Notes: generated by a model not told the origin, from the letters alone. A stretch of DNA of 64,000 nt from Actinomycetota bacterium (GCA_019348255.1 JAHWJU010000001.1:2900-66899), one strand, 5' to 3'. Numbered from the stretch's first letter, positions 1 to 19,055 are shown. Numbers and translations are program-made.

Positions 1-1098
1 GCCGGCCCGGTGGTGGTGCTGCTGGGGGCGGCCATGGCATGGGTGTTGACCGGGGCGGCACTGCGCCCGGTGACGAGGATGACGCGCCGGGCGGCCACCC
101 TTTCGCTGCAGGAGCCCGACGCCCGCCTGCCGCACCCACCCGGAAGCGACGAGTTGGCCGAGCTCGGCCGCACCCTGAACGGAATGCTCGACCGCATCGG
201 CCAGACGGTGGCCCACGAGCGGGCCTTCGTCGACCACGCCGGCCACGAGCTGCGCAGCCCCCTCGCCGTCCTGCGGGGCGAGCTCGAGCTCATCCGCCTA
301 GAGATCTCCAACGAGCGCGGGAGCGAACGGACGGTGGCGGGCATCGATAGCGCCATGGAGGAGACGGACCGCCTCACCGCGCTCACCGAACAGCTCCTGA
401 CACTGGCCCGGGCCGATGCCGGATTTCTCGTGACGCCACCGGCGCCCGTCGAGGTGAGGGACGCCGCCAGCAGGGCGCTGCGCCGGCTCGACACACCACG
501 AGGTCTCGCCGTGGCGCTGCGCGTCCGTCCCGGCGTGGTGGTGAACGCCGACCCGGTCGCCTTCGAGCAGCTCTTGTACAACCTGGTGGACAACGCCGCC
601 GGTTGGGCGAAGAGCCGGCTCCTGGTCCGAGCCGTCGGCAGTGCCGACGCCGTCATCGTGGAGGTCGCCGACGACGGCCCCGGGTTCCATCCGACCGTCC
701 TCCCGCGGGCGTTCGACCGGTTCAGCCGGGCCGATCCCGCTCGGGGCCGCTCCGGCGGCGGGACAGGCTTGGGACTGGCGATCGTCGCGGCCATCGCCGG
801 CGCCTCCAGCGGGAGCGTCGAGGCGGGGAACGGCCCCCCGCTCGGTGGCGCGTGCGTCAGGGTCGTCATGCCCGCGACACCGCGCCGCCCGGCGACACCC
901 GAGCCGGCGTCCTCCCCAGCCGGCGCCCACGAGGCGGCCGGGATGGTCACCTCCGTGCCCGCCACGCGGCCCAGCCGCTCGGTTCCACTCCGGCCACGTC
1001 CGGTGCTGTTGCGCCGCTCGGGCGTCTCCGACCCGGAAGGATTCACAGCACTGCCGCGAAGGAACGACCCTCTGGAAGGGACCGGGCATGGCGACTGA
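1..1098 (+). CDS. Sensor histidine kinase, C-terminal part (5' end lies outside the window)
   Basis: The frame is open from base 1. It has a HAMP-like linker, H-box 'HAGHELRSPLAVLRGELEL', N-box 'LLYNLVDNA', and G-boxes 'DDGPGF' and 'GGTGLGLAIV'. About 85 aa of Pro/Arg/Ser-rich tail follow the catalytic core. The stop overlaps the next gene by 11 nt. Confidence 0.85.
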   Translation, partial: AGPVVVLLGAAMAWVLTGAALRPVTRMTRRAATLSLQEPDARLPHPPGSDELAELGRTLNGMLDRIGQTVAHERAFVDHAGHELRSPLAVLRGELELIRLEISNERGSERTVAGIDSAMEETDRLTALTEQLLTLARADAGFLVTPPAPVEVRDAASRALRRLDTPRGLAVALRVRPGVVVNADPVAFEQLLYNLVDNAAGWAKSRLLVRAVGSADAVIVEVADDGPGFHPTVLPRAFDRFSRADPARGRSGGGTGLGLAIVAAIAGASSGSVEAGNGPPLGGACVRVVMPATPRRPATPEPASSPAGAHEAAGMVTSVPATRPSRSVPLRPRPVLLRRSGVSDPEGFTALPRRNDPLEGTGHGD

Positions 1099-1657
1099 CG
1101 CCGAGTTGACGGAGCTGCCCCCGACCGGATCGGGCTTCGAGCCCGAGTGGGCGCAGGTGTACGAGGCCCATGCTCCGGCGGTGCTCGCCTTCGCCCGGAG
1201 CTGGTTGGGCAACGCCGCCATGGCCGAGGAGGTCACCCAGGACGTCTTCGTGTGGCTGTGGACCCGCTGCGAGGCCTTCGACCCCACCCGGGGGTCCTTG
1301 CGCTCGTACCTGCTGACCCAGACCCGCTGGCGCTGCGTCGACGTCATCCGGGCCGAGGAGTCACGACGGAAGCGGGAGCGCCGGGCCGCCAGTGCCAGCG
1401 AGTTACACGCGGTCCCCCACCACGAAGAGGAGCACGCCGCCGCGCAGCGTAGGGAGGCGGTCCAGGCAGTCCTCGGCTCCCTCGTCCACCTCCCCCCCGA
1501 GGAGCAGCTCCCCATCAACCTGGCCTACTTCGCCGAGCTGACCCACAAGGAGGTGGCTCGGGTCCTCGAGTGGCCCGAGGGCACGGTGAAGTCGCGGATC
1601 CGCAGGGGCCTGCACCGGATGCGCCAGCACGTGGTCGCCGAAAGGGACGTGGTGTAG
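1088..1657 (+). CDS. ECF-type RNA polymerase sigma factor, copy A
   Basis: ATG at 1088 is in frame with track ORF 641..1657. Region 2-like 'EEVTQDVFVWLW' and region 4 HTH 'LAYFAELTHKEVARVLEWPEGTVKSRIRRGLHRMR' are present. It is nearly identical to the ORF at 18438..19055. Confidence 0.85.
   Translation: MATDAELTELPPTGSGFEPEWAQVYEAHAPAVLAFARSWLGNAAMAEEVTQDVFVWLWTRCEAFDPTRGSLRSYLLTQTRWRCVDVIRAEESRRKRERRAASASELHAVPHHEEEHAAAQRREAVQAVLGSLVHLPPEEQLPINLAYFAELTHKEVARVLEWPEGTVKSRIRRGLHRMRQHVVAERDVV
1113..1622. repeat. Direct repeat copy A (internal part of the ECF sigma gene); partner at 18501..19008
   Basis: Manual alignment of the two stretches shows homology starting at 'ctgcccccgaccggatcgggcttcgag' and ending near 'ggcctgcaccggat'. 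The core 1145..1385 is base-for-base identical to 18531..18771 (241 nt). The flanks carry scattered substitutions. Confidence 0.85.
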
Positions 1658-1826
1658 ACGCGGTGGGCTCCGAGCTCCGCGGGTCATCTGGGCGGCGTGT
1701 GTCTTCGTACTGCGGTCGTGATCGTCCTTCCCTCCCCACCACCGTGAGACGGGTTTCCAGCATGCGGGCGGGGGACGGCCGGTCCTGGAACCAGACCTGT
1801 CCGGGGCGGTAGGTGACCGGCCGTCC

Positions 1827-2915
1827 GTGACCGCACGCCGGGGACTGCAGAGGAAGTCGATGGAGCGCAACGTCACTCGGCACGGCCTGGGAGACGTCGC
1901 CGCAGGTGATCGCTCGGAGACCCTCACCCTCGGCGCCGATCCCACCGACCCTCGCCTGCCGTCCCGGTTCGCCGAGGCCCTGGCAGAGCCGCTGCCCATG
2001 GAGGCGGTCGAGCGACTCGAAGGTGCCGCCAAGGCCTTGTTCCGTCAGGTGCTCGCCAGCCCCCGGGCCGTACCCGTCGCCATGGCCGCCGCCTTCGTGG
2101 AGTTCTTCCACACGGTCGGCTTCCTGTTCAAGTACAAGCCGTACGGTGTGAAGGTGGCCTCCCCGTTCGGGTACTCGATCTTCGACCTTCACGACGGGCA
2201 CGGCTTCAGCTTCCAACTGCACAGCCAGCCGAAGCTGGAGGCCTTCCACATCCTCGGCGCAAAGACGGAGAGCTTCGTCTACTTGTCCACCTACCCCCAG
2301 TGGGCGACCGAGGGAAGCCGGGCAGGCCGGCGCTGGGCCGAGGGGCGGGCAGGCATGGAGTCGAGGTATGCCTACGTTCCCGGCCCTGGCGACGTCATTC
2401 GGGTCTCTTCGACCGAGCTCGTGCACTCGGTCGTCGGCTGCACGCTGGAGGAGTATGCGAGCTGCTCCGTCGATGCGGTGGAGCGACTCCTGGACCAGAA
2501 CGCCGGGACGGCCTGGGCGCTGCCCGAGGCACACCCGAGCATCCCCCTCCTCCTGGACGGCTCGTACGCCGATCTTCCGGCACGACTCGTCGAGCACACG
2601 AAGTGCGGGTGGGCGAGGGAGCCGCTCGGGCACGAGCCGATTCTTGCGATCGAAGGGCAGTTCCGAGGGCTGAGGGCCCGGTCCCGCCCGGATCGTCCCG
2701 TGGTGGTGCCTCCGGTCCCGCAGTGGATCAACGTGGTCGTTCCGGTCGAGGGAGGCGTTCGTTGCGCAACGGCCGGGCAGACCTGGTCCGTACGACCGGG
2801 GCAGCTTCTCGCCAGCGCGCCCGGATACGGTGTCGAGGTAGCTTCCGACGAGCCGGCGGTGTTCGCGCTGCACTCGATCGCCCGTGATCTCGTCCTCCGG
2901 CAGTGGAGGCGATGA
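1827..2915 (+). CDS. Cupin-fold protein, type II phosphomannose-isomerase-like
   Basis: This 362-aa ORF has normal amino-acid composition, unlike the Arg/Pro-rich antisense ORF 1515..2984. 'GFSFQLHSQPKLEAFHILGAKTESFVYL' resembles the cupin/PMI motif S-x-Q-x-H-x(2-3)-x-E-x-(W/F). The start is uncertain (GTG 1827 or ATG 1860). Confidence 0.5.
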   Translation: MTARRGLQRKSMERNVTRHGLGDVAAGDRSETLTLGADPTDPRLPSRFAEALAEPLPMEAVERLEGAAKALFRQVLASPRAVPVAMAAAFVEFFHTVGFLFKYKPYGVKVASPFGYSIFDLHDGHGFSFQLHSQPKLEAFHILGAKTESFVYLSTYPQWATEGSRAGRRWAEGRAGMESRYAYVPGPGDVIRVSSTELVHSVVGCTLEEYASCSVDAVERLLDQNAGTAWALPEAHPSIPLLLDGSYADLPARLVEHTKCGWAREPLGHEPILAIEGQFRGLRARSRPDRPVVVPPVPQWINVVVPVEGGVRCATAGQTWSVRPGQLLASAPGYGVEVASDEPAVFALHSIARDLVLRQWRR

Positions 2916-3005: not shown

Positions 3006-4547
3006 GTGCCAGTAGCGCGTCGTACTACGAGCCCGGGACGTCGATGTTCGGTGGTCTTTGGAGGCGACGTGCAGGTTCGGTCAAGAGGAGCACTCGGCAC
3101 GGGGCGCGTCGACCGTGGTGCCGGCGGGCGGCCGAACTGGTTCCACCACGGCGCCCTTCCACTCGGTGCCTTGGTACTCGTCGGCGACGCCGCCGGGATG
3201 GCCTTAGGTCTGGCGGCGGTCCCCATGCTGGGGATCGCCTCGAGCTGCATGATCGCCACCCTGCTCGTGGTGACGGCCCGGGGCCATCACCGGCTCGGTC
3301 TGGACCCGTCGTTGAGCAAGGATGCCCCCGGGCTGGTGGGGGCCGTCGCCGTTCCCATCGTGGTGCTGGGCAGCCTCCAGGACTCGACCTACGTGGCGGC
3401 GACCATGCTGCGCTCCGCTCTGGCGGCCACCGTGGCGGTGCTGGCCCTCCGGGCGGTGCTCTACGCGATGGTGAGGGCCCTGCGCAGCCGGCGGCTCCTC
3501 GCCGAACCGACCCTCGTCGTGGGGGCCGGCAACCTGGGCGCCGAGGTGGCGCGCGTGCTCAGAGACCATCCCCAGTACGGCTCCGAACCGGTCGGTTTCC
3601 TCGACGACGTGGACGACGAGATCGGTCTCCCGCTCCCGGTGCTGGGACCGGTGTCCTCGTTGGAAGCCGTGGTGCGCAGCCAGGGCATCCGCCGTGTGGT
3701 GGTGGCCTTCGGGCTCACCACCGATGACCAGATGGTGGAGGTGGTGCGGGCGTGTGACCGTGCTGCGGTGGAGATCCACGTCGTGCCCCGGTTCTTCGAG
3801 CTGGGGGCGGCGGGGGTGACCGAGGACGTGTGGGGCGTGCCCTTGGTGCGGGTGGGGCGCTCGCTGTGTCACCCCGCCGCCCACTGCGCCAAGCGGGCGT
3901 TCGACCTGGCGTTTGCGAGCGTGGCCCTGGTGGCGGTCTCGCCCCTCATGGTCGTCATCGCCGTCCTCGTGCGCCTCTCCAGCCCGGGACCGGTCCTGTT
4001 CCGCCAGGCCCGGGTGGGCCAGCACGGGAAGATCCTGGAGCTACTCAAGTTCCGGTCGATGGAGATCAACGACGACTCCGACACCCAGTGGTCGGTCGAG
4101 GCCGACCAGCGGGTGACGCGGATCGGAGCGGTCCTGCGCCGCACCAGCCTCGACGAGCTGCCCCAGCTGTTCAACGTGCTGCGCGGGGACATGTCCTTGG
4201 TCGGACCCCGACCGGAGCGGCCCTTCTACGTCGAGCGGTTCAGCAGGGAGGTGGCCGGCTACCGCCACCGTCACCGGGCGCCGGTGGGGATGACCGGCTG
4301 GTCCCAGGTGAACGGTCTGCGCGGTGACACCTCGCTGGAGGAGCGGGCTCGCCTCGACAACCACTACATCGAGAACTGGTCGCCGTGGCGGGACATCGTC
4401 ACCCTGGCCCGGACGGCACGAGTGCTGCTCATCGGCGATCAACGCCGCCCGGTCCCCGCCGGGGAGCCGGCGGGCCAGGGGGACGCTCCGGCAGAGGCGC
4501 TGGCGGTCCACCGTGCGTCCGAACCCCGCCAGGATCCGGCAGCGTAG
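3006..4547 (+). CDS. Polyprenyl-phosphate glycosyl-1-phosphate transferase (WbaP/CpsE-type bacterial sugar transferase)
   Basis: The C-terminal catalytic domain reads 'PVLFRQARVGQHGKILELLKFRSM...DELPQLFNVLRGDMSLVGPRPERP...MTGWSQVNG'. The N-terminal half is hydrophobic and is followed by a 'VVGAGNLG' nucleotide-binding-like linker. The start codon is uncertain. Confidence 0.85.
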   Translation: MPVARRTTSPGRRCSVVFGGDVQVRSRGALGTGRVDRGAGGRPNWFHHGALPLGALVLVGDAAGMALGLAAVPMLGIASSCMIATLLVVTARGHHRLGLDPSLSKDAPGLVGAVAVPIVVLGSLQDSTYVAATMLRSALAATVAVLALRAVLYAMVRALRSRRLLAEPTLVVGAGNLGAEVARVLRDHPQYGSEPVGFLDDVDDEIGLPLPVLGPVSSLEAVVRSQGIRRVVVAFGLTTDDQMVEVVRACDRAAVEIHVVPRFFELGAAGVTEDVWGVPLVRVGRSLCHPAAHCAKRAFDLAFASVALVAVSPLMVVIAVLVRLSSPGPVLFRQARVGQHGKILELLKFRSMEINDDSDTQWSVEADQRVTRIGAVLRRTSLDELPQLFNVLRGDMSLVGPRPERPFYVERFSREVAGYRHRHRAPVGMTGWSQVNGLRGDTSLEERARLDNHYIENWSPWRDIVTLARTARVLLIGDQRRPVPAGEPAGQGDAPAEALAVHRASEPRQDPAA

Positions 4548-4613
4548 GCCCCCTCGTGGGCGGACGGGAGTGGGAGCCGGATCTAGGGATCGCCCAGCTC
4601 CGTACTGACCCGT

Positions 4614-6509
4614 GTGAGCGGCTGGCGCCCGGGGCCGAGGATGGTCGGCCCGCCTGGCGCGTCCCCGGGACCTCACACCGCGGTGGACGAGCGGGAGGCG
4701 TTCGACTCGCTGGCGTGGCCTCGGTCGGGGCCGCCCGCCGGCGGGCCGCTCCGCCCGGCGGGTCGGGACCGCGGTCGGAGACGGCTCCGGACGGGCGTGG
4801 TGCTGACCGTGGTCGCTGTCTCGTGGCTGGTCGCGGTCGCCGTCCAGGGGGCACTGGCTGCCGCCGACGCCCGTGCCGGGCGAGACGCCATCGAGGAGGC
4901 CCAGCGCCTGGTCGGTGCCGGTGGCCTCCCCGGGGAAGGAGTCGACGCGGCACTGGAGCGGGCCCGCGCCTCGTTCACGGGTGCCCACGCCCGGATGACG
5001 AACCCCTTCGTCCTGCCGGCACGGGTGCTGCCCGTCCTGGGCCGCCAGCTGCGGTCCTTCGCTGCCCTCGCCGGTGCCTCGGGGCAGGCGGCCGAGATCG
5101 GTGCCACGGCCGTGGCCTCGGCGCAAAAGACCCTTGAGGCCACGGCCGGTGGTGGTCCGGACCGAGTTGCCGCTCTCCGCCGGCTGAGCAAAACGGCCGA
5201 GCGTGCCGAACAGGACCTGGCGGGGCTGGACCTCGGGCCGCGGGACCACCTGTTGGCCTCGCTGGCCCGGGCCCGGAGCGAGCTCGCCGGGCAGCTGGCC
5301 GACGGGCGGTCCAACCTTCGGCGCGCCAGCCTGATCAGCGACGCGGTCGCCGACATGCTCGCCGGACCCGGCGGCTACCTGCTCCTGGCCTCCAACAACG
5401 CCGAGATGCGGGCCGGATCCGGGATGTTCCTCAGCGCGGGGCTCCTGGAGACCCGCGACGGCTCCCTCGTCCTCGGCGCCATGCGGCCGACGGGCGACCT
5501 TCGCCTGCCCGGGATGGGCCTCCGGGGCGACCCCGACCTCCAGGCGCGGTGGGGCTGGCTCCATCCGGGTAGGGAGTGGCGCAACCTGGGCCTCTCGCCG
5601 CGCTTCGGGGGCACCGGAGAGCTGGCAGCGAGGATGTGGCAGGAGCTGGAGGGCAGGCCGCTGGACGGCGTGCTGGCGATCGACGTCGAGGGGGTGCGGG
5701 CCCTGCTGGCGGCCACCGGGCCGGTGCAGGTCGGGAAAGAACGGGTGGGAGCCGATGACGTGGTCGGCCTTCTGCTGCATGACCAGTACCTCGACCTGCC
5801 GGGAGTCGGTGCTGCTGACCAGTTCGAACAGGCCCGGCGTCGTGAGCGTCTCGGAGATCTGGCGGGCGCCGCCCTCCTCGCCCTGGAGTCAGGCGACTAC
5901 GACCCGGGCGTGCTGGCGACCGAGCTGGCCGATGCGGTCAGGGGGCGCCACCTCCTGGCGTGGTCGTCCGACGCCGGCCGGCAGCAGGCGTGGGAGGAGG
6001 CGGGGATCAGCGGCTCTCTCGGCTCGGAGTCGCTGCTCGTCTCCGTGCTCAACCGGGGTGGCAACAAGCTGGACCCCTTCCTGAAGGTGGCGTCGAGCCT
6101 GAGCTTCCGTCCGGTCTCGGATGGGACCGACGTGGCCCTCGAGGTGCGGCTCTCCAACCACACCCCGGAGGGCGAGCCCCCGTACGTCGCCGGACCCGCC
6201 CCCGGCAGCGGTCTGGCCGCCGGCGACTACCTCGGGATCGTGAGCGCCAACGTCCCGGGCGGCGCCGCCAACCTGCGCATCGACGGTGACCCCGCACTGG
6301 TCGCGCGCGGGCCGGACGGGCCCACCCAAGTGATCGCCGCCCCCGTGCTGCTCCCGCGCGGCTCCAGTCAGACCATGGTCATCCGTTTCCGTCTTGCCGC
6401 CGGCGTCGAGAGCATGCGTGTGGAGCCCTCGGCTCGCATCCCCCCCGTCGCATGGAGCATGCCGGGTGAGGAATGGGAGGGCGACACGGCCCGGGTCGTC
6501 ACGTGGTGA
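4614..6509 (+). CDS. DUF4012-like membrane-anchored protein of EPS loci
   Basis: One N-terminal TM helix 'VVLTVVAVSWLVAVAV' is present. 'LLLASNNAEMRAGSGMFLSAGLLETRDGSL' matches my recollection of the DUF4012 core (NNaE-R-gGG). The gene sits next to the priming transferase, as is typical. Confidence 0.65.
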   Translation: MSGWRPGPRMVGPPGASPGPHTAVDEREAFDSLAWPRSGPPAGGPLRPAGRDRGRRRLRTGVVLTVVAVSWLVAVAVQGALAAADARAGRDAIEEAQRLVGAGGLPGEGVDAALERARASFTGAHARMTNPFVLPARVLPVLGRQLRSFAALAGASGQAAEIGATAVASAQKTLEATAGGGPDRVAALRRLSKTAERAEQDLAGLDLGPRDHLLASLARARSELAGQLADGRSNLRRASLISDAVADMLAGPGGYLLLASNNAEMRAGSGMFLSAGLLETRDGSLVLGAMRPTGDLRLPGMGLRGDPDLQARWGWLHPGREWRNLGLSPRFGGTGELAARMWQELEGRPLDGVLAIDVEGVRALLAATGPVQVGKERVGADDVVGLLLHDQYLDLPGVGAADQFEQARRRERLGDLAGAALLALESGDYDPGVLATELADAVRGRHLLAWSSDAGRQQAWEEAGISGSLGSESLLVSVLNRGGNKLDPFLKVASSLSFRPVSDGTDVALEVRLSNHTPEGEPPYVAGPAPGSGLAAGDYLGIVSANVPGGAANLRIDGDPALVARGPDGPTQVIAAPVLLPRGSSQTMVIRFRLAAGVESMRVEPSARIPPVAWSMPGEEWEGDTARVVTW

Positions 6510-7729
6510 GCCTGGCCCTGCCCCGTCGCGGCCGGGAACGTCAGCGTCCTTCTCACCGTCCGCCGGACTGGGGGCCGGTCCCACTGGTCGAGCGGGAGGT
6601 CGGCGCCCGCCCGGTCGGGGCCCTGCGGGCGCTGTTCGTCAACGAGAACCTGGGCGGCCACACCGCCATGCACACCTACCTCCGCGTGGCGCTCGCCGAT
6701 CACCCTGAGATCGACGCCACCTTCATGGACGTACCGCCACCCGGCCTCTGCCGGAGGATGGTGGCGGTCCCGGTCCCCGGTCTGGCCCGCCTCGACGCCG
6801 ACCTGCAGGCCTTGCGCTACCAGCTCGCCCAGAGCGCCTACGTCCGGCGCCGGCTGCATCGCCTCCTCGCCGATGTCGACGTGGTCCACGTCTACACCCA
6901 CAATGCCGTGCTGCTGTCGGCGGCCGCTCTCGCCTCCCGGCCAACGGTCGTATCCCTCGACACCACCAACCTGGTCAACGCCTTCTCGCTCGACTATCGC
7001 CGTCCTGGCCGGATGACCGGCGCCGGCCTGCGGGCGGTGATGCCGCTCGAGCGGCGGGTTTACGAGGCAGCCAGGGTGGTGGTGGCGCAGTCGGAGTGGA
7101 CGGCGGTGCAACTGGAGCACTATGGGGTCTCTCGCCATCGGGTGCGGGTCATACCGTTCGGCGTGACGGTGCCGGCCGTGGCGCCCCGCGCCGCAACCGA
7201 GGGCCTGCCCCGGGTGACGTTCGTGGGCAAGACCATGGCCGGCAAGGGGGGATGGGCGCTGGTGCGGGCGTTCGAGTCTGGCCTGCGAGCGCACTGCCGG
7301 CTCACCCTCGTCACTTGCGACCGGGTGGGGGCCCGGCCGGGGATCGAGGTGCTGAACGATGTGCGTCCGGGCGACGGTCGCCTCCTGGAGCTGTTCGCCC
7401 GGACGGCGGTGTTCGTGCTGCCGACCGTGAACGACAAGGCGCCCTACGCGGTGCTCGAGGCCATGGCCGCCGGCGTGCCGGTGGTAAGCACCCGAGTGGG
7501 CGCCATCCCGGAGATGGTGCAGGATGGCGTGAGCGGGATCCTGGTGGACGCCGGGGACCAGGCCGGCCTGGTGGCCGCCCTGCGGGCCCTGCTCGGCGAC
7601 GAGGACCGGCGCCAGGCCATGGGGGATGCGGCTCGCCGCCGGGTGCTCGAGCGGTTCGACGCCCGCCGGACCACGGCCGACCTCGTCGACCTCCTGGCCG
7701 GGGTGTACGGGGGACGGGAGCCGAGCTGA
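6506..7729 (+). CDS. Glycosyltransferase family 4 (GT-B)
   Basis: 'VFVLPTVNDKAPYAVLEAMAAGVPVVSTRVGAIPEMVQDGVSGILV' is the GT4 E-x7-E region. The GTG at 6506 forms a GTGA overlap with the upstream stop. The track start at 6473 is also possible. Confidence 0.8.
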   Translation: MSLALPRRGRERQRPSHRPPDWGPVPLVEREVGARPVGALRALFVNENLGGHTAMHTYLRVALADHPEIDATFMDVPPPGLCRRMVAVPVPGLARLDADLQALRYQLAQSAYVRRRLHRLLADVDVVHVYTHNAVLLSAAALASRPTVVSLDTTNLVNAFSLDYRRPGRMTGAGLRAVMPLERRVYEAARVVVAQSEWTAVQLEHYGVSRHRVRVIPFGVTVPAVAPRAATEGLPRVTFVGKTMAGKGGWALVRAFESGLRAHCRLTLVTCDRVGARPGIEVLNDVRPGDGRLLELFARTAVFVLPTVNDKAPYAVLEAMAAGVPVVSTRVGAIPEMVQDGVSGILVDAGDQAGLVAALRALLGDEDRRQAMGDAARRRVLERFDARRTTADLVDLLAGVYGGREPS

Positions 7730-7740
7730 GCCCCGACTGG

Positions 7741-9114: not shown

Positions 9115-9117
9115 GGG

Positions 9118-10599: not shown

Positions 10600-10705
10600 T
10601 CCGTTTCCACGGAGCCGATCCCACGACGGACCTCCTCCCTTACCGGCTCGCCGAGAAGGCGGACGGTGCCGCGAATCTCCTGTCGCGCCTTTCCGTATAC
10701 CGGCG

Positions 10706-12043
10706 ATGGTCATGACCCTCCGGGGTGCCCCCCCTGCCGTGCGGATGGCCCCGTTCGTGGTCGCCAACGTGGCGCTCGGGGGCCTCGTCCTCGCCGGCCT
10801 CGGTCCGTGGATCGTGGCGCTGGCGGTGGTCGCTCCCCTCGCTGTCGCCGTGGTCGGCCGACCTCAGCGAGGCCTGCTCCTGCTGGCGGTCCTGGCGCCG
10901 TTCAACGGGTTGCTCCTGGTCGTTCCCGCACCGGCCCTGGCCGTAGGCTGGAAGGAGGCGCTGGTGCTCCTGACGGTGGCAGCCACCTTCGTGGCCCCCC
11001 GCCATGCCCGAGGCCCCTCCCGCCGCCTGCCCTCGTGGAGCCCTGCCGTCGTTGGGCTCCTCGCTGTCGGCACGGTCTCGGCGGTCGTGGTGGGGGGCAT
11101 CCAGGCAGCGGTGGGCATGAAGGTGGTGTTCTTCTACGTCTTGGTGGCCGTGGCCGTCTGGCGCTGCCCCTTTGACGCCGCCGAGCGGGACCGCCTGGTG
11201 AGCGTGCTCATGGGCGGCGCCGTGGTCACCGCGGTGATCGGCCTGGGCCAGCAGGTCGTGGGCGCGGGCGCCCTGCACGCCCTCGGCTACGAGTACAACA
11301 CCACGCTGCGGACCACCGGCGGGCTGTTGCGATCGTTCGCCACGTTCAACCAACCGTTCGGCTTCGGCTTCTACCTCATGCTGGTGCTCCTCATCGGCAT
11401 ACCGGTCGCCCTGTCCGAGCCGAAGCGGTGGCGCAACCGGGCCTTCCTGGCCTCGGTGCCCCTCCTCGCCGTGGCGCTGGGCTTCACCTTCGTGCGTGGC
11501 GCCTGGATGGGCCTGGCCGTGGGTCTCGCCTACCTGGGCCTCGTGCGCCACCCGGTCCTGCTGCTCGGCATCCCCCTCGCCCTCCTGGCCCTTCTCTTCC
11601 TTCCCCAGGAGCTGGCCGGGCCGGCACTGTCGGCGTCGTCGTCGGTCGAGCGGGTGGAATCGTGGCAGGAACGGGTCTCGCAGGTTGCGGCGGCGCCGCT
11701 GGGGGCCGGCGTGGGCGTGACCGGCAGCGCCTCGGAGAAGGTGGCTGAGCTGCGGGGTGGGACTCATTACCAGCCGGACAACTACTACTTCAAGATCCTC
11801 ATCGAGCTCGGCGTGCTGGGGTTCTGGCTCTTGCTGCTGCTGGTGGCCTCGGTCTTCACCACCGCTCGGTCGGCATCTCGTCTGGGGGGCGAGCGCGGTG
11901 CCGTCGCCACCGGGGTGGCGGCAACGGTCCTGGCCGCGGCCGTGGCCTCGCTCGTGGCCACGTACCTGGAGATCTTTCCTATGGACCTGTACTTCTGGCT
12001 CCTCGCCGGGACGGTGTCGGTGTGGGCAGACGAGTCGCGCTGA
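10706..12043 (+). CDS. O-antigen ligase/polymerase family membrane protein (Wzy-like)
   Basis: The protein is polytopic and hydrophobic. The characteristic loop 'FTFVRGAWMGLAVGLAYLG' is present. ATG 10706 is in frame with track ORF 10400..12043. The gene is divergent from the BY-kinase gene. Confidence 0.75.
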   Translation: MVMTLRGAPPAVRMAPFVVANVALGGLVLAGLGPWIVALAVVAPLAVAVVGRPQRGLLLLAVLAPFNGLLLVVPAPALAVGWKEALVLLTVAATFVAPRHARGPSRRLPSWSPAVVGLLAVGTVSAVVVGGIQAAVGMKVVFFYVLVAVAVWRCPFDAAERDRLVSVLMGGAVVTAVIGLGQQVVGAGALHALGYEYNTTLRTTGGLLRSFATFNQPFGFGFYLMLVLLIGIPVALSEPKRWRNRAFLASVPLLAVALGFTFVRGAWMGLAVGLAYLGLVRHPVLLLGIPLALLALLFLPQELAGPALSASSSVERVESWQERVSQVAAAPLGAGVGVTGSASEKVAELRGGTHYQPDNYYFKILIELGVLGFWLLLLLVASVFTTARSASRLGGERGAVATGVAATVLAAAVASLVATYLEIFPMDLYFWLLAGTVSVWADESR

Positions 12044-13062
12044 ACGCGCTGTCCCTGCGGCCTGGGGGCGGAGGGGTGCAGACCTACATCCGCGAGCTCC
12101 TGCCCCCCTTGGCGGAGGCCGTGGACGCCGACGTCGTGGCGGCCGTCCAGAAGGATGTCCGCCACGAGCTCCCTGACGGCGTGGGCGCCCTGGTGCGACC
12201 CACGGCCGACGGCGTGGTACGGGCCCTGCACGGACTGCGATCGCTGGGCCCCGCCGACGTGGTCCACGGACTCGACGTCGACGTCCCCGCCTGGCGGCGG
12301 GGTCCGAGTGTCGCCACCGTGCACGACCTGGCCGTGTTCGACGTTCCCTGGGCCTTCTCCGGCCGGCGGGCCCGGGGCGAGCGGGCGCTGATCCGTCACT
12401 CCCTCGCGAGAGTCGACGCCGTCGTGGCCGTCTCCGCCTTCACCGCCGAGCGCGTGGCGGCCTGGTTCGGCCGCGCCGCCGTGGTGACGCCGCTGGCGCC
12501 TTCGACCGACCTGGCGCCGGCACCGGACGAGGAGGTGGAGCGACTGCGCGCCCGCTACCGGCTCCCGCCGCGCTTCGTGCTCCACGTGGGCACGCTGGAG
12601 CCGCGCAAGGACGTGACCACCCTGGCGTGGGCATGCCGCCAGGTGGGCCTCCCCCTCGTGCTGGCGGGCGCGGGGACCCGGAGCTTCCCGGCTCCCGGCA
12701 CCATCCGGCTGGGGTACGTGGCCCGGGAGAGCCTGGCTCCGCTCTACGGTTCCGCCACCGTGGTCGCCTACCCCTCCCGCTACGAGGGCTTCGGCCTTCC
12801 GCCCCTGGAGGCCATGGCCTGTGGGGCCGCGGTCGTGGCCAGTCGGGTGGCGTCGTTGCCGGAGGTGCTCGGAGACGCCGCCTGGCTGGTGCCTCCCGGG
12901 GACGGCGAGCGCCTGGCCGGGGCCATCAGGGAGGCGCTCGCCGACGACGAGCGTCGCCGGGAGATGGCCCGGGCGGGAACGGAGCGGGCTGCCGCCTTCA
13001 CGTGGACGGCGACGGCCTCGGCCACGGCGGCGGTCTATCGTTCCCTCGGCGTGTGCCTGTGA
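12022..13062 (+). CDS. Glycosyltransferase family 4
   Basis: 'YPSRYEGFGLPPLEAMACGAAVVASRVASLPEVLGDAAWLVPPGD' is present. The start overlaps the upstream gene end. Confidence 0.85.
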   Translation: MGRRVALNALSLRPGGGGVQTYIRELLPPLAEAVDADVVAAVQKDVRHELPDGVGALVRPTADGVVRALHGLRSLGPADVVHGLDVDVPAWRRGPSVATVHDLAVFDVPWAFSGRRARGERALIRHSLARVDAVVAVSAFTAERVAAWFGRAAVVTPLAPSTDLAPAPDEEVERLRARYRLPPRFVLHVGTLEPRKDVTTLAWACRQVGLPLVLAGAGTRSFPAPGTIRLGYVARESLAPLYGSATVVAYPSRYEGFGLPPLEAMACGAAVVASRVASLPEVLGDAAWLVPPGDGERLAGAIREALADDERRREMARAGTERAAAFTWTATASATAAVYRSLGVCL

Positions 13063-14588
13063 GGACGGAGGGGCCGCCTCCCCCGTCCCCCCGGCCGGTG
13101 GGGAGCTCCGGTGTGGAGGCGCCCTCGGGCCGAGACGCCGCCGACCCCGCCGAGACCGGGCGGAGCCGTCTGCTGGCCGACGCCGGGACCCTGCTCGCCG
13201 GTCGCCTGGCGGTGGCCGCCCTGGGGTGGGCCGGCACCCTCCTGATCGTCCGCAGCCTCAGCGTGGACGAGTTCGGGCGGTTCACGTTCATCTTCGGGTT
13301 CCTCGGCCTGGTGGCAACCCTCACCGAGTTCGGCATCGGGCGGGTCGCGGTCGCCGGCATCCTCGACGAGGAGCACGACCGGGGCGCCTTCGCCGGCGCC
13401 TACGTCCTGCTGCGTACGGCTCTGGGGCTGGGTGGCTACGTGGCGGCCGTGGCGGTGGTGGCACTGGCCGGCTACCCCGGTGACGTGATAGCGGGCACGG
13501 CGGTGGCCGCGCTGGCGCTGGTCATCGCCACGCCGTCCCACGCCTACGTCGCCGTCTTCCAGGCCGAGAACCGGCTCCGTCCCATCGCCACCGCCTCCCT
13601 CCTGGGGCAACTCAGCCAGATCGCCCTCACGGCGGCGATCGCCGCCGCCGGGGGGTCGATGCTGCTCTTCACCATCCCAGCGGTGGTGGGCGAGGTGGTG
13701 ATCATCGCCTGGCACTGGCGCTGCGCCCGCCGGCTGCTGGCCCTGCGCTACCGGCTGCTGTGGGGGGCGTGGGCCGGGTTGTTCCGAGAAGCAGTCCCAC
13801 TGGCCATCGGCGGGGCGATGGCCACCGCCTACTACCGCATCGACTCGGTGATGCTATCCAAGCTCGACACCTTTGCCGCGGTCGGCGTGTACGGGGTCGC
13901 CTACAAGTTCGTCGACGTCGTGCACTTCGTCTCCACGGCGGTGATGATCGCCACACTTCCGGTGCTGGTACGGGCCTGGCCCGAGCAGCCGGAGGCGTTC
14001 CGGGACGGTTTCCGACGGGCGTTCACCATCTTGATGCTGGCCGCGGTGCTGGTCGTGGCCGAGTTCCTGCTGTTCGCCGAGCCCGTGATCGCGACCCTGT
14101 ACGGACCCGAGTACCGGGCCGGCGCCGACGCCACCCGGGTCGTCGTGGCCGCAGAGTGCATCGCCTTCTTCGGCAGCCTGGCGTTCACCGCCCTGGTCGC
14201 GGCCGGTCGCCACCGGCTCTACCCGTTTGCGACGTTCGTCGGCGTGGTGCTGAACGTTGGGCTCAACCTCTGGCTGATCCGGGCGTGGTCGTACCAGGGC
14301 GCGGCGATCACCACCCTGGTCACCGAGGTGGTGGTGGTCGGCCTGCTGTGGGCCATCCTCCTGCGCCAGCCCGGCCTGCGGCCCTCCCGGCTGGGGCGCG
14401 CCGCACGCGCCCTGCCCTGCGGCGTGGCTGCCGTACTCGCCGGCGCTCTCCTGGACCGGCTACTACCGTGGCCGTTGGCCGCCGTCGGCACCGCCGTGGT
14501 CTTCGTCGCCGTGGTGGAGGTGGCCGGGGCAGCGGGGGCCGGTGGCCTGCGAGCGCTGGCGGGTCGTGCCACGGAGCCAAGCAGCTGA
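13059..14588 (+). CDS. Polysaccharide flippase (Wzx/MOP superfamily)
   Basis: About 12 hydrophobic segments are visible. The N-terminus 'LLADAGTLLAGRLAVAALGWAGTLLIVRSLSVDEFGRFTFIFGF' is typical of polysaccharide biosynthesis (PST) proteins. GTG 13059 forms a GTGA overlap with the GT4 stop. Confidence 0.8.
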   Translation: MRTEGPPPPSPRPVGSSGVEAPSGRDAADPAETGRSRLLADAGTLLAGRLAVAALGWAGTLLIVRSLSVDEFGRFTFIFGFLGLVATLTEFGIGRVAVAGILDEEHDRGAFAGAYVLLRTALGLGGYVAAVAVVALAGYPGDVIAGTAVAALALVIATPSHAYVAVFQAENRLRPIATASLLGQLSQIALTAAIAAAGGSMLLFTIPAVVGEVVIIAWHWRCARRLLALRYRLLWGAWAGLFREAVPLAIGGAMATAYYRIDSVMLSKLDTFAAVGVYGVAYKFVDVVHFVSTAVMIATLPVLVRAWPEQPEAFRDGFRRAFTILMLAAVLVVAEFLLFAEPVIATLYGPEYRAGADATRVVVAAECIAFFGSLAFTALVAAGRHRLYPFATFVGVVLNVGLNLWLIRAWSYQGAAITTLVTEVVVVGLLWAILLRQPGLRPSRLGRAARALPCGVAAVLAGALLDRLLPWPLAAVGTAVVFVAVVEVAGAAGAGGLRALAGRATEPSS

Positions 14589-15745
14589 TGCGCCTGGTCG
14601 CCATATCGCACACGGGACAGGCCTCGGGCGCCGAGCGAGTACTGGTCCGAGCCCTCGGCGAGGCGGTGGAGGTGGGGTGGGAGGTGAGCTGCCTCAGCCC
14701 CGACGGGCCGCTCGTCAGCCTCTTGGCCGATGCCGGCGTAGACCGCCGTCGGTCACCGGAGCTCACCTTGCCCCGTGGCCCCCGCCACCTGGCCGTCCTC
14801 GCCCTGTTCCTCAGGTGGCTGCGAGCCGTCGTGTCCGTGCGCCGGGCCAGCGTGGACGCCGATGTCGTCGTGGTCAACGGCCTCCTGGCCCTGCCGGTGC
14901 TCCGCCTGGCCCGGGCCGGGCTCCGGGCCCGGGTGGCGTGGCTGGTGCACGACGTCATCGTCCGTCCCGACCGGCTCACCCTGCTCCGGGGCTGCGCGCC
15001 AGCCGTCGACGTGGCGATCTGTGTCTCCTCGGCGGTGGAGCGAGCTCTGTCCCCCTACGGCCTCGCCACCCGGGTCGTGCACACGGGCACCCCCTGGCCA
15101 GTCGAGGCCGTACCCCCGGAGCCCCCCTCCCCTCCGGTCGTCGGCTGCAACGCTGTGCTCACCTCCTGGAAGGGTCAGGACGTGCTCCTGGACGCCGTTG
15201 CCGCCATCCCCCGGCGGGACGTCGTCGTCGAGCTCATGGGAGGGCGATTTCCCAAGGACGGCGACTACGTCGCCGCTCTCGAGGCTCGTGCGGCTCGTCC
15301 CGATCTCGCCGGGCGGGTCCGCTTCCTGGGCCACGTGCCCGATCCCCTCCGCCGGATGCGGTCCTGGACGGTCATGGTCTCACCGAGCACCGATCCCGAG
15401 GCGGGCCCGCTGAGCGTGATGGAGGCCATGAGCATCGGGCTTCCCGTGGTCGCCACCGCCCACGGAGGGGTGATGGAGATCCTGGGCGACGCCGGCTTGA
15501 CCGTGCCCCCCCGCCGCGTCGGTGCCCTCGCTGGCGCCATCCAGGACGTGCTCGAGAACCCGAGGCGGTTCCGCGGCGAGGGCGCTCCCGGTCGGACCCT
15601 CGTGGCCCGCGGGTTCTGCCTGGACGCGCAAGTGCGAGCGCTGCTCGAGACCCTGCAGGAGGAGAACGGAACCCGGGACGGCAGCGACCGGCAGGTCGGC
15701 GAGGAGTCGGGCGGGTGCGGGCGAGGGTCCCTGGGCGCCCGCTGA
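14588..15745 (+). CDS. Glycosyltransferase family 4
   Basis: 'MRLVAISHTGQASGAERVLVR...' and 'STDPEAGPLSVMEAMSIGLPVVATAHGGVMEILGDAGLTV' are present. The ATG overlaps the flippase stop (TGATG). Confidence 0.85.
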   Translation: MRLVAISHTGQASGAERVLVRALGEAVEVGWEVSCLSPDGPLVSLLADAGVDRRRSPELTLPRGPRHLAVLALFLRWLRAVVSVRRASVDADVVVVNGLLALPVLRLARAGLRARVAWLVHDVIVRPDRLTLLRGCAPAVDVAICVSSAVERALSPYGLATRVVHTGTPWPVEAVPPEPPSPPVVGCNAVLTSWKGQDVLLDAVAAIPRRDVVVELMGGRFPKDGDYVAALEARAARPDLAGRVRFLGHVPDPLRRMRSWTVMVSPSTDPEAGPLSVMEAMSIGLPVVATAHGGVMEILGDAGLTVPPRRVGALAGAIQDVLENPRRFRGEGAPGRTLVARGFCLDAQVRALLETLQEENGTRDGSDRQVGEESGGCGRGSLGAR

Positions 15746-15746
15746 C

Positions 15747-16064
15747 TCAATCGGGCTGAAACTCGCCCTCGCCCCCGTGCTCCCGTTCCTCCTGCTCGAA
15801 GACCCGTACCTCGTCGACGATCCGCCGCCAGAGCTCGTCGGGGGGTCGAGGTGCCGTGGGGAGCGTGCCCGCGGCCTCCCGCAGCTGCGCCAGTTCCCGT
15901 CGACAGGGGGCGCATCCTTCGAGGTGGGCCTCGATGGCCACTCGCTCGGCCCCTTCCACCGCGCCCAGCGCGTAAGCGCCCAGGAGCGCCTGCAGCTCGG
16001 AGTGGCCTCCGGCGTCCATCATCGACTCGGGATCCGCCGGACCCGGCCGTGACCACGGCTCCAC
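15747..16064 (-). CDS. Zinc-binding anti-sigma factor (ZAS / zf-HC2), soluble, no TM segment
   Basis: 'LGAYALGAVEGAERVAIEAHLEGCAPCRRELAQLRE' carries the H-x3-C-x2-C signature. The product is 91-105 aa depending on the start (ATG 16064 or 16022). There is no sigma gene immediately upstream on the same strand. Confidence 0.65.
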   Translation of the reverse strand: MEPWSRPGPADPESMMDAGGHSELQALLGAYALGAVEGAERVAIEAHLEGCAPCRRELAQLREAAGTLPTAPRPPDELWRRIVDEVRVFEQEEREHGGEGEFQPD

Positions 16065-16296: not shown

Positions 16297-16863
16297 TTGG
16301 AGACCAGGGTGAGGCGACGGGCGCGACGAGGACGGCCGGCAGGACGATCCGGAACCAGGACTGCCCGGCCGCTCGCGTCCGCGGCCCTCGTGGTGGTCCT
16401 GCTCGGGGCGGTCGGGTCGGCGGGCCCGGCGCTCGCCCAGGACTACGTCGGTGCATCGCCGGGCGGTGGAGGGGAGGTGAGGCCCCCCACCGGTCCCGGA
16501 GCGGGCGGCGGGGACGGCGACGCGGCTCGCGGCCCGGGTCCCGACCAAGGCGGCGACTACGTCGGGCTCGCCCCGGACCCGGGCCAAACCGGCGACTACG
16601 TCGGCCTCCCCGGCCCGGCCCGAGCCGGCGACGACCGTGGTGTGGACGTGACGGGCGCGGCGGCGCGCCGCAGCCCGGGGGCGGCCGGCGTCGGCGGCGG
16701 AGCATCCGGCCGGGACGACAGACGGCTCGCCCGGACGGGCACTGACGAGGCGACGGTCGCGATGCAGGCCAGCCCGGTGAGCGCGAGCGACGGGGTGGTG
16801 CTGGCCGGGCTCGGCTTGGCCGGACTGGTCCTCGTCGCCCGGCGGGCCCGAATGCGGAAGTAG
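16297..16863 (+). CDS. Secreted Gly/Pro/Asp-rich protein with a C-terminal LAxTG-type sorting signal
   Basis: The N-terminus 'RRRARRGRP...LASAALVVVLLGAVGSAGPALA|QD' is signal-peptide-like with a twin-Arg. The 'DYVG' unit occurs three times. The C-terminus has 'LARTG', then the hydrophobic 'VVLAGLGLAGLVLVA' and the basic tail 'RRARMRK'. The start is TTG 16297 (after 'GGGAAGGA') or GTG 16309. Confidence 0.6.
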   Translation: METRVRRRARRGRPAGRSGTRTARPLASAALVVVLLGAVGSAGPALAQDYVGASPGGGGEVRPPTGPGAGGGDGDAARGPGPDQGGDYVGLAPDPGQTGDYVGLPGPARAGDDRGVDVTGAAARRSPGAAGVGGGASGRDDRRLARTGTDEATVAMQASPVSASDGVVLAGLGLAGLVLVARRARMRK

Positions 16864-16873
16864 CCCTCGAACC

Positions 16874-17539
16874 GTGAAAGCGAATGTCTTCAACCTGGCA
16901 GCCGCACGAGACGACCGTCTGCGGAACACCGGCGCCGACGCGCCCGTCCTCGTCGTCGGAGACAACGCCGCCGACGTCCGCCTCCTGGCGCGGTTCCTGA
17001 AGCGGCTCGACTGCAGCACCGTCGCCACCGCGGCCGACGCCCGAACCGCGGTGCGGGCCCATCTGGCGCTCCGGACGGAGGTGGTGGTGGTCGACGTCGA
17101 CATGAAGGGAGCCGACGTATTCGAGGTGATGGAGCAACTGCAGTGCGCTACGTCTCCCGACGCCCGACCCCCGGTGTTCGTGCTCACCGGCGAAATGTCG
17201 CCGCAAGCCAGGGAGGACGCGGTGGCGGGGGGAGTGAAGGGCTTCTTGAAGAAGCCACTCGACTACAGCGAGGTGGCGGTGTGCATCTCGAACCTGCTCG
17301 AGACCCGTGCCCTCCGCCTGCAGTTGACGCAGATGGCGAAGGGCATCAGCAACTGCATGTCGGTCATCAGGAACTACGCCGGGTTCGTGATCAGTGGAAT
17401 CGATCAGAGGGCGGATCGGGGCGAGCAGGGATGGTCCGAGATCCGTCGTGACGCCGAGGAGATCCAGTTGGCGGTGGAGAGGTCGGCGGCCTATAGCAAC
17501 CACGTGCTGCGGCACCGGAGCGCGGGGGCAGGGACCTGA
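16874..17539 (+). CDS. Response-regulator receiver domain fused to a degenerate DHp-like helix pair (no phospho-acceptor His, no ATPase domain)
   Basis: REC landmarks are 'VLVVGDN', 'VVVVDVDMKGADV', 'VFVLTGE' and 'FLKKPL'. The C-terminal 'QMAKGISNCMSVIRNYAGFV...DAEEIQLAVERSAAYSNHVL' aligns by eye to the HisKA consensus 'AHDFNNLLTVIxGYAELL...EI..A.ERAA.LT..LL', with Lys where His is expected. Confidence 0.65.
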   Translation: MKANVFNLAAARDDRLRNTGADAPVLVVGDNAADVRLLARFLKRLDCSTVATAADARTAVRAHLALRTEVVVVDVDMKGADVFEVMEQLQCATSPDARPPVFVLTGEMSPQAREDAVAGGVKGFLKKPLDYSEVAVCISNLLETRALRLQLTQMAKGISNCMSVIRNYAGFVISGIDQRADRGEQGWSEIRRDAEEIQLAVERSAAYSNHVLRHRSAGAGT

Positions 17540-17612
17540 AGCTCATGGTGAGGCACGCCGGGGGTGGCGGCACCAGGGGCGCCGTTCGCCGTCCGAGCGC
17601 AGGGAGCGACCG

Positions 17613-18323
17613 GTGAGCAGGCTCCTTGTGTACGACGACGAGCCCCAGGTGCGGCGCCTACTCCGGTCGGGCTTCGAGCGGGAGGGGCACGAGGTCGTCG
17701 TGGTGCACGAGGGGGAGGCCGCCCTCGAGCGTCTGGCCCGGGGAGGCTTGGATCTGCTCGTCCTCGAGGTCGGTACGCCGGGGTGCAGGGGTACCGATGT
17801 GATCCGGCGGGTCAGGGAGTGGTCGGACGTGCCCGTCATCGTGTTGTCCATGCCGCAGGGGCTGGACCACAAGGTGGGCTTGTTGCGGGCGGGAGCCGAC
17901 GACTTCGTCGAGAAGCCGTTTGCCATGGAAGAGCTCAGCGCCCGGGCCCACGCCGTGCTCCGGCGGTGTGAACCCAGTGCCCACTCGGGCGTACTCACCT
18001 TCCACGACGAGCTGGAGGTCGACCTTTCCCGTCGGTTGGTGCTGCTGGGCGGCAACGTGCTGCACTTGACGCCGACCGAGTACCGCCTGCTCGAGGTACT
18101 GGCTCGCAACGCCAAGAAGCTCCTCACCCAGGAGCACCTCCTCCAACGGGTGTGGGGACCGGGATACGCCAACGAGCGCGAGTACCTCCGGACCTACGTG
18201 GGCCAGCTGCGGGCCAAGCTGGGTGATCGGGCGTCCCAACCCCGCTGGATCGCCACAGAGCCGCGCGTGGGGTACCGGTGGCTGGTGGAGCCCGACGTGC
18301 CCCACCACGCGTCCGCGATGTAG
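17613..18323 (+). CDS. OmpR/KdpE-family response regulator with Glu at the phospho-acceptor position
   Basis: GTG 17613 lies 6 nt after 'AGGGAG'. The receiver has 'LLVYDDEP', 'LDLLVLEVGTPG' (E52 encoded at 17766..17768, where KdpE has D52), 'PVIVLS' and 'VEKPF'. The winged helix 'LTPTEYRLLEVLARNAKKLLTQEHLLQRVWGP...YLRTYVGQLRAKLGD...TEPRVGYRW' is KdpE-like. Confidence 0.85.
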   Translation: MSRLLVYDDEPQVRRLLRSGFEREGHEVVVVHEGEAALERLARGGLDLLVLEVGTPGCRGTDVIRRVREWSDVPVIVLSMPQGLDHKVGLLRAGADDFVEKPFAMEELSARAHAVLRRCEPSAHSGVLTFHDELEVDLSRRLVLLGGNVLHLTPTEYRLLEVLARNAKKLLTQEHLLQRVWGPGYANEREYLRTYVGQLRAKLGDRASQPRWIATEPRVGYRWLVEPDVPHHASAM

Positions 18324-18437
18324 CTATCTCCAGCTAACTGGCGGACGCTACATGTTGCTGGTCCTTGTAACTTCTTTACCGAAAAAAGGACATTTGCGGT
18401 GAATCCCTTTCCTTCGTCCGAGGCATGCTGATGGCTT
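18324..18437 (+). promoter_or_regulatory. AT-enriched intergenic region, probable promoter of sigma copy B
   Basis: This is the only conspicuously AT-rich stretch in this part of the window ('ttgtaacttctttaccgaaaaaaggacatttgcggtgaatccctttcc'). It lies directly upstream of the sigma ORF. No confident -35/-10 assignment could be made. Confidence 0.3.
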
Positions 18438-19055
18438 ATGGACGGTGCGGCGGGTGTTGAACGAGGGGGCGGGCCCTCCGATACGGCGGAGGGCGGGCGG
18501 CTGCCCCCGACCGGATCGGGCTTCGAGAACGAGTGGGCGCAGGTGTACGAGGCCCATGCTCCGGCGGTGCTCGCCTTCGCCCGGAGCTGGTTGGGCAACG
18601 CCGCCATGGCCGAGGAGGTCACCCAGGACGTCTTCGTGTGGCTGTGGACCCGCTGCGAGGCCTTCGACCCCACCCGGGGGTCCTTGCGCTCGTACCTGCT
18701 GACCCAGACCCGCTGGCGCTGCGTCGACGTCATCCGGGCCGAGGAGTCACGACGGAAGCGGGAGCGCCGGGTCGCCGGTGTCAGCGAGTTGCACGCGGTC
18801 CCCCACCACGAAGAGGAGCACGCTGCCGAGGAGCGCAGGGAGGCGATCCGGGCAGTCCTCGGCGCCCTCGACCAGCTCCCCCCCGAGGAGCAGCTCCCCA
18901 TCAGCCTGGCCTACTTCGGAGAGCTGACCCACAAGGAGGTGGCTCTGGTCCTCGAGTGGCCCGAGGGCACGGTGAAGTCGCGCATCCGCAGGGGCCTGCA
19001 CCGGATCCGCCACGGCGTGTTCCATCAGTTGGAGATGGCGACCGAGGTCGGCTGA
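18438..19055 (+). CDS. ECF-type RNA polymerase sigma factor, copy B
   Basis: Its domain motifs match copy A, and the 80-aa block 'EWAQVYEAHAPAVLAF...RAEESRRKRERR' is identical. The N- and C-termini differ from copy A. Confidence 0.85.
   Translation: MDGAAGVERGGGPSDTAEGGRLPPTGSGFENEWAQVYEAHAPAVLAFARSWLGNAAMAEEVTQDVFVWLWTRCEAFDPTRGSLRSYLLTQTRWRCVDVIRAEESRRKRERRVAGVSELHAVPHHEEEHAAEERREAIRAVLGALDQLPPEEQLPISLAYFGELTHKEVALVLEWPEGTVKSRIRRGLHRIRHGVFHQLEMATEVG
18501..19008. repeat. Direct repeat copy B (partner of 1113..1622)
   Basis: See copy A. The identical core is 18531..18771, and the offset between copies is 17386 bp. Confidence 0.85.

Follow-up and report, generated by a model that had tools for sequence, protein, structure and literature searches.

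Concerted evolution by interlocus gene conversion is known for several sets of bacterial paralogs, such as tufA/tufB, the rRNA operons and mtrA (PMC6053082). Here we describe sigA and sigB, two genes for extracytoplasmic function (ECF) sigma factors located on a 64,000 nt stretch of DNA from an Actinomycetota bacterium (GCA_019348255.1, JAHWJU010000001.1:2900-66899), referred to as the window. We regard the two genes as paralogs whose 5′ parts were probably homogenized by interlocus gene conversion. Like the systems above, they are dispersed copies in different contexts, arranged as direct repeats on one chromosome, and within the tract the paralogs are closer to each other than the orthologs are, with the synonymous sites homogenized as well. 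Unlike these systems, sigA and sigB are homogenized in part only (the 5′ 242–272 bp of 513 bp), the pair appears to be lineage-specific and young (dS ~0.09) instead of long-lasting, the genes are regulatory, and the evidence comes from two metagenome-assembled genomes (MAGs) and not from finished genomes. The word “sigma” is absent from the main text of the published survey of 26 genes (PMC6053082), and a search of the literature for the MAG accessions gave no result. With this pair, a known and rather ordinary process gains a new example, from a gene class for which we found no earlier report. It opens no new kind of biology.

Two further systems invite comparison. ECF sigma factors can be wired to two-component systems, as is the case for sigE with cseABC in Streptomyces. 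The present locus likewise has an actinobacterial ECF sigma factor linked to an OmpR-type regulator and/or a kinase beside cell-envelope and polysaccharide genes, and the expression of sigA and sigB probably depends on the response regulator. It differs from sigE-cseABC in that one or more regulators lie upstream of sigB and a kinase upstream of sigA, and in having a zf-HC2 anti-sigma gene in the locus. Streptomyces also undergoes rearrangements of the AUD type, in which DNA units flanked by direct repeats are amplified or deleted. Like these units, the 17.4-kb segment between sigA and sigB has direct repeats on both sides. With 242 identical bp within 513 bp at 96%, the repeats are of sufficient length for unequal recombination by RecA and could in principle mediate loss or amplification of the segment. 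Unlike in the AUD units, the repeats are functional genes here and not dedicated repeat elements, and the few available sequences included no amplified or deleted form.

Repeat anatomy of sigA and sigB

Both genes are intact open reading frames on the plus strand. sigA (1088–1657) encodes 189 aa identical to MBW3648929.1, and sigB (18438–19055) encodes 205 aa identical to MBW3648944.1. Their Pfam matches are limited to Sigma70_r2 plus r4/r4_2, and the match to TIGR02937 (93 bits) exceeds the cut-off of 42.9. With sigma-2 and sigma-4 domains only and a length within ∼170–210 aa they belong to the ECF (group 4) sigma factors. The best NCBIfam subfamily matches (SigK-like) are far below their cut-offs and do not support assignment to a particular ECF group.

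The genes share an ungapped direct repeat of 513 bp (copy A, 1114–1626; copy B, 18500–19012; both on the plus strand, offset 17386) with 21 differences, corresponding to 95.9% identity. The longest identical run spans 242 bp (1144–1385 in copy A, 18530–18771 in copy B) and covers the coding sequence of the sigma-2 domain and of the first part of the linker. If the 21 differences were placed randomly in the 513 bp, a run of this length would have P ~2e-5. The original prediction had given the identical block as 1145–1385, which is right as to the identity and one base short as to the extent. It had also described similar edges of about 130 bp on each side. The homology in fact continues for 30 bp on the 5′ side (1114–1143), where the sole differences are at 1142–43 (CC in A, AA in B), and for 241 bp on the 3′ side (1386–1626), where 19 substitutions between 1386 and 1621 give 92% identity. 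At both outer boundaries the identity drops abruptly from 92–100% to a random level, and beyond 1114–1626 the ungapped identity between the loci is 27–45%, i.e., no homology remains and the gene ends and flanks are unrelated, as had been proposed. The extreme N- and C-terminal codons of sigA cannot be aligned with those of sigB, though they are family-like in appearance. A search across the window for a third paralog that might have served as donor found none.

The two halves of the repeat differ at silent positions. Between the copies there are no synonymous and two non-synonymous changes in the 5′ half (1115–1384) against five synonymous and 15 non-synonymous changes in the 3′ half (1385–1627; dS 0.088, dN 0.087, dN/dS ~1). 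Expressed per site, this is 0 of 68 synonymous sites versus 5 of 60 (Fisher P = 0.02, Poisson P = 0.003). Together with the abrupt outer boundaries, this contrast speaks against the earlier idea of a recent duplication that decays at its ends. It also bears on the simplest alternative to conversion, namely a young duplicate made by a single copying, in which purifying selection kept the sigma-2 half clear of changes while the linker and the sigma-4 domain drifted. Such a history would agree with the location of the core in the part of the family that is conserved best, where homologs of 56–97% identity share long invariant runs, and with the 3′ differences being mostly non-synonymous and located in the linker. 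Selection at the protein level leaves synonymous changes in place, and since the synonymous sites are homogenized too (0/68 versus 5/60), it fails to explain the identity of the core. The single-copying history also offers no route by which the same ten-site allele switch, with six synonymous sites, could appear in both copies (see below), and is contradicted unless that pattern is an assembly artefact. We consider it very improbable.

Concerted variation in a sister genome

A second MAG from the same project (GCA_019348055.1, contig JAHWKE010000001.1) is collinear with the window and extends 2.9 kb further to the left. We refer to it as the sister. Over 29,055 bp the two align without gaps and with 33 mismatches (99.886% identity). 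The mismatches are far from evenly spread: 16 fall within 1044–1297 at locus A, 10 within 18586–18683 at locus B, at exactly homologous sites, and only seven elsewhere (P < 1e-20 for the clustering under the background rate of 7 differences in 28.7 kb). The tract at locus A (1044–1297, plus strand) consists of four sites unique to A (1044, 1047, 1083, and 1092), the two positions 1142–43 and ten core sites at 1200–1297. All four A-unique sites are third codon positions in the frame of the upstream kinase gene and are synonymous.

In a four-way alignment of the core, copies A and B are identical within the window and identical within the sister (over 272 bp in the latter), and the two genomes differ from each other at the ten sites, in copy B exactly as in copy A; six of these co-varying sites are synonymous. 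In the 3′ half the relation is reversed. Each copy is identical to its ortholog in the other genome and the paralogs differ at 19 sites. Paralogs are thus closer than orthologs within the tract and the pattern is orthologous outside it. This is the pattern that defines concerted evolution through gene conversion in tuf and other prokaryotic genes (PMC6053082), and it fits the ongoing gene conversion that the original prediction had offered as one option, with the assembly caveat discussed below. The repeat anatomy, the synteny of the locus and the pattern of variation in the two assemblies are observations, from which we infer the conversion mechanism and, tentatively, its direction.

We denote the window-type allele x and the sister-type allele y. 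Because the y allele begins in kinase sequence found only at locus A and yet is also present in copy B, at least one conversion would have taken place after the allele arose. The possibility that the four flanking single nucleotide polymorphisms (1044–1092) derive from copy B was tried and rejected, as they do not match it. The window-type allele of locus A also occurs in a Logan k = 31 contig from an unrelated sequencing run (SRR32481293). This contig extends exactly 30 nt past the last A-specific base and stops there, which is what a de Bruijn graph should give if it branches at 1143/1144, the point from which A and B are identical. This contig and the third-position sites in the kinase frame together show that the polymorphism at locus A is real allelic variation. 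Polarized with five outgroups, x is ancestral by 8 to 2 over the ten core sites, which does not decide the direction of conversion. The sister allele is strand-biased, with mostly C-to-T and G-to-A changes that are mirrored in both sigma copies. At three of the four flanking positions that differ, C in the window corresponds to T in the sister, with no assignable polarity. The cluster of changes in the sister allele could stem from import from another lineage, from a recombination-associated mutation cluster or from strain mixing in the assembly. In one version the sigma genes recombine often, and a local mutation shower, generated during one repair event with extended single-stranded intermediates, was passed on to the partner gene. 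We regard this as very improbable. If true, the pair would serve as a natural reporter of hypermutation tied to recombination, and perhaps also of switching of the exopolysaccharide (EPS) segment through the repeats.

In their 3′ halves, A and B share 92% identity, against only 74–79% with the orthologs of relatives, and each carries derived states. This indicates that the 513-bp segment was copied between the loci within this lineage. The course of events under gene conversion would be as follows. sigB would be the old resident copy, closing a conserved block of polysaccharide cluster, zf-HC2 anti-sigma gene, small protein, receiver, response regulator RR_B and sigB. The internal 513 bp of sigA would have been copied from, or exchanged with, the sigB lineage (dS ~0.09 in the 3′ half), and a later interlocus conversion of RecA type would have homogenized the 5′ 242–272 bp, i.e., the sigma-2 domain. 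If the difference between the two genomes is real, then in the simplest history a diverged allele first replaced, or arose at, positions 1044–1297 of locus A, after which conversion would have carried the homologous part of this allele into sigB. sigA itself could have originated by partial duplication, or it could have been an older resident sigma gene before being overwritten. That conversion homogenized the 5′ half at some time is likely, while for a conversion after the separation of the two MAG lineages the balance is about even, if anything slightly on the doubtful side.

Several observations weigh against this account. From the window alone, the contrast at synonymous sites reaches only P ~0.02. 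Both genomes are MAG contigs, and a third MAG of the same project has SPAdes-style NODE_ contig names, which makes a short-read assembly likely. The ten core sites lie between identical blocks of 56–86 bp and 88 bp, and bulge removal at k = 55 could collapse two real variants in such a geometry. If such a collapse occurred in one MAG, the identity there is artificial and provides no evidence for conversion after the split. Conversion of a tract with ~10% mismatches within a background divergence of 0.025% would need a high conversion rate. Finally, as to the origin of sigA, the only long context available for a homolog of the kinase (59% identical) has no sigma gene downstream.

The assembly points can be taken together as an explanation of their own. 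The cores would then really differ at the ten sites (1200–1297) in at least one MAG, and a de Bruijn assembler would have merged the variants and threaded the contig twice through one consensus. Both the perfect 242-bp identity in the window and the seemingly concerted change would be artefacts, and the sole real event between the genomes would be an allelic replacement at locus A. Besides the contig names in the same project and the block lengths bracketing the variable sites, which give the geometry on which bulge removal in SPAdes operates at k = 55, such a collapse would account for the A/B differences that survive, since these are exactly the ones unable to form a bulge at that k. In addition, dS between x and y (~0.09) equals that between A and B in the 3′ half. 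It leaves unexplained six real differences that fall within A-unique sequence or adjoin it (1044–1143) and form one contiguous tract with the ten core sites. As locus A is truly x in one genome and y in the other, the identity must also be real in at least one genome unless B is a third sequence, and with a larger final k no bulge would have formed. We consider a collapse possible but rather doubtful, and the same holds for the notion that the perfect identity in the window is partly a product of assembly. Paralog identity in MAGs must in any case be checked against reads.

If the identity is real, the pair provides a clean and datable partial gene conversion between two regulatory genes. One sigma core would be kept uniform in two genes that are under different signaling inputs beside a polysaccharide locus, a useful example of regulons gaining a second input.

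Genomic context of the two sigma genes

All relatives that have a 74–80% identical sigma protein and a readable context show the context of sigB. The most extensive conservation is seen in locus L031 (sigma 76–79% identical), where the right-hand ~8.5 kb of the segment is syntenic. The order there is Wzy, glycosyltransferase GT4, Wzx, GT4, anti-sigma, small protein, receiver, RR_B and sigB, and the EPS proteins are 75–84% identical to those of the window. L031 and L032 share the order anti-sigma, small protein, receiver, RR_B (72–73% identical) and sigma, and in L032 the sigma gene is followed by an ortholog (76%) of the GH5-like gene that follows sigB. In L115, L117, and L118 RR_B (76–79%) is followed by the sigma gene, with part of the receiver also present in L115 and L117, while L114 and L116 contain only a 79-aa end of RR_B (89%) before it. 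None of the relatives with this context has a kinase upstream of the sigma gene. L003/L033 (sigma 74%, different context) have a divergent zf-HC2 anti-sigma gene at a distance of ~0.8 kb upstream, and the 1.8 kb of contig upstream of their sigma gene contains no regulator and no kinase. L003 was the one close relative from a scan of genome contigs, in which the other loci are 22–44% identical. A scan of metagenome contigs gave only generic ECF sigma genes, matched via “WPEGTVKS,” and a homology search with the 80-aa core peptide gave no matches. Guessed Logan fragments of the core and flanks were likewise absent from the protein collection.

sigB is thus the ancestral copy with an ancient link to the EPS cluster, and sigA is an addition at the left end. 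sigA, with its overlap of the kinase stop codon, is seen only in this lineage, of which two genomes were sampled. The kinase-sigA junction looks evolutionarily young, although its four polymorphisms all fall at third codon positions. The sigB-type sigma family is repeatedly linked to surface-polysaccharide loci. In L114 (1099–9998, relative P0124) and L117 (2231–4988, relative P0004) the RR_B-sigma pair is followed not by the GH5-like gene and instead by a different polysaccharide cluster, which in both cases has an epimerase, a methyltransferase and glycosyltransferases GT1 and GT2, and in L114 additionally Wzx, Wzy and a priming transferase.

The original prediction saw the kinase before sigA and the regulator before sigB as the halves of one split signaling unit. 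The sister contig shows that the kinase has a regulator of its own. RR_A, an OmpR-family response regulator of 223 aa (CopR/CzcR-like), lies directly upstream and overlaps the start of the kinase by 4 nt, and the order RR_A-kinase-sigA, with this overlap, is repeated in an independent Logan contig. RR_A is only 33–35% identical to the RR_B orthologs of relatives, which are themselves 72–79% identical to RR_B. A split signaling pair is therefore not supported. The full kinase in the sister and Logan contigs is 524 aa, and its homologs are 454–471 aa and cover ~85% of the query. In the closest homolog with a long context (59% identical) the order is response regulator, kinase and receiver.

These data also bear on the proposal of a Campbell-type insertion, in which the EPS segment would have recombined into a single sigma gene, duplicating this gene, separating kinase and regulator and leaving the repeats as sites of deletion or amplification. 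The direct orientation of the repeats around 17.4 kb would be consistent with it, and a transposase gene of the IS630 family (DDE_3), which in the sister directly precedes RR_A, suggests that the left end may have been mobile. Beyond the kinase having its own adjacent regulator, the right half of the EPS cluster together with the anti-sigma, receiver, RR_B and sigB genes is syntenic in L031, and the RR_B-sigB module is kept in four further loci. No integrase-type Pfam domain was matched among the scanned open reading frames of 1–21 kb, and no tRNA was found in 1–22 kb. The original prediction had named a discontinuity in GC skew or codon usage near the segment ends as something to look for; neither GC nor GC at third codon positions (GC3) changes sharply at either boundary. 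With conserved synteny and no integrase, tRNA or compositional break, a Campbell-type insertion is not supported. A duplication of this kind would moreover take one flank along in an unbroken stretch, which does not match an internal 513 bp whose ends are both unrelated. No hybrid sigA/sigB gene, as expected at a deletion or amplification junction, was found among the members of the two 90%-identity protein clusters, which represent two genomes of the lineage. We judge this scenario extremely improbable. The left-hand module RR_A-kinase-sigA, for its part, may have arrived by a mobile element.

Two side observations concern this left end. The IS630-family gene (DDE_3 plus HTH) is at 548–1627 on the minus strand of the sister contig (L001), immediately upstream of RR_A-kinase-sigA and near the contig end, which places it ~2.3–1.3 kb left of the window start. 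The kinase has a low-complexity C-terminal tail of ~70 aa rich in Pro, Arg and Ala (~880–1098), which is absent from the 454–471-aa homologs, and GC3 falls from ~0.9 to 0.71 in this tail, after ~900.

Predicted function and gene layout of the segment

What we infer about function starts from the proteins themselves. The recognition helix of sigma-4, EGTVKSRIRRG, is identical in sigA and sigB, and the differences between the proteins are mostly in the linker. With identical sigma-2 domains and recognition helices, the two are most likely equivalent sigma factors under two regulatory inputs, and judging from sequence would share their target promoters and their ZAS-type anti-sigma factor. This single anti-sigma factor presumably binds both products. 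The ATG of sigA is at 1088 and the TGA of the kinase at 1096–98, which gives an overlap of 11 nt and agrees with the overlap that had been noted, and a Shine-Dalgarno-like GGAAGG is located 8–9 nt upstream of the sigA start. sigA is probably translationally coupled to the kinase; as the final gene of the RR_A-kinase operon, it would be under a CopR-like input. For sigB, expression would start from a conserved AT-rich promoter region of its own, downstream of RR_B. The intergenic region upstream of sigB (18324–18437) has 49% GC, as expected from the original prediction. It contains the conserved motif CCTTGTAACTTCTTTA (18363–18378, plus strand) with a −35-like TTGTAA, and TTGTAA or TTGCAA plus ACTTCTTTA also occurs upstream of the sigB orthologs in L031, L032, L115, and L117. 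The motif is a putative promoter. Just upstream of it, an inverted repeat (ATGTAGC … GCTACAT, 18318–18353) spans the stop codon of RR_B and could be a terminator or an operator.

The gene layout was derived from GC3 frame analysis, Pfam and NCBIfam together with the gene calls of the sister contig. The window starts within the histidine kinase gene, the 3′ part of which (1–1098, plus strand) has the Pfam domains HAMP-HisKA-HATPase_c. Downstream of sigA follows a gene for a protein without family match (~1860–2915, plus strand). The Wzx/Wzy-type polysaccharide cluster (3198–15745, mixed strands; Pfam and sister-contig gene calls) has the order priming sugar transferase (Bac_transf), DUF4012, GT4, APH-like kinase, Wzz/P-loop ATPase protein, Wzy, GT4, Wzx, and GT4. 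The Wzz/P-loop ATPase protein is tyrosine-kinase-like and encoded on the minus strand. Next to the cluster is the small zf-HC2 anti-sigma gene (15747–16019, minus strand), identified by Pfam zf-HC2/RskA_N on the sister gene. Its N-terminal anti-sigma domain has the HxxxCxxC zinc motif (HLEGCAPC) that defines the ZAS type, while all NCBIfam anti-sigma matches are below their cut-offs. The place of this gene is conserved in L031, L032, and L003. The presence of a Wzx/Wzy locus and an anti-sigma gene between the copies agrees with what had been described from the window.

A small protein is encoded at 16477–16863 on the plus strand. It is Gly/Asp-rich with three GDYVG motifs. Its C-terminus, made up of LARTG, a hydrophobic stretch and RRARMRK, resembles a cell-wall sorting signal for an LAxTG (class E) sortase. 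In L031 and L032 a comparably sized gene without family match lies between the anti-sigma and receiver genes. In the window the small-protein gene is followed by a receiver-only response regulator of 221 aa (16874–17539, plus strand; Pfam), with 61–66% identical orthologs at the same place in relatives, and by RR_B (17613–18323, plus strand) directly upstream of sigB. RR_B is an OmpR-family response regulator whose best NCBIfam match is KdpE, under the cut-off of that model, in line with the KdpE-like regulator predicted before copy B.

The GH5-like protein downstream of sigB is encoded at 19156–21429 on the plus strand, and its gene contains a 384-nt repeat in 2.4 copies with 73% matches (20325–21240). 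Further repeats were observed to the right. The next open reading frame region (21839–22527) has about five 132-nt repeats encoding “DIYVMNADGSNP...WSPDGRRI.F.SDRDG,” which resemble β-propeller blades of the TolB/PD40 type. A 54-nt tandem unit in 5.8 copies with 85% matches occurs in a coding region at 24299–24610 and corresponds to an Ala/Glu-rich repeat of 18 aa. Finally, neighboring genes on both strands within 29827–33385 share 67–70% nucleotide identity (31495–32231 with 32643–33385, and 29827–30208 inverted with 32993–33374) and form a local family of diverged paralogs.

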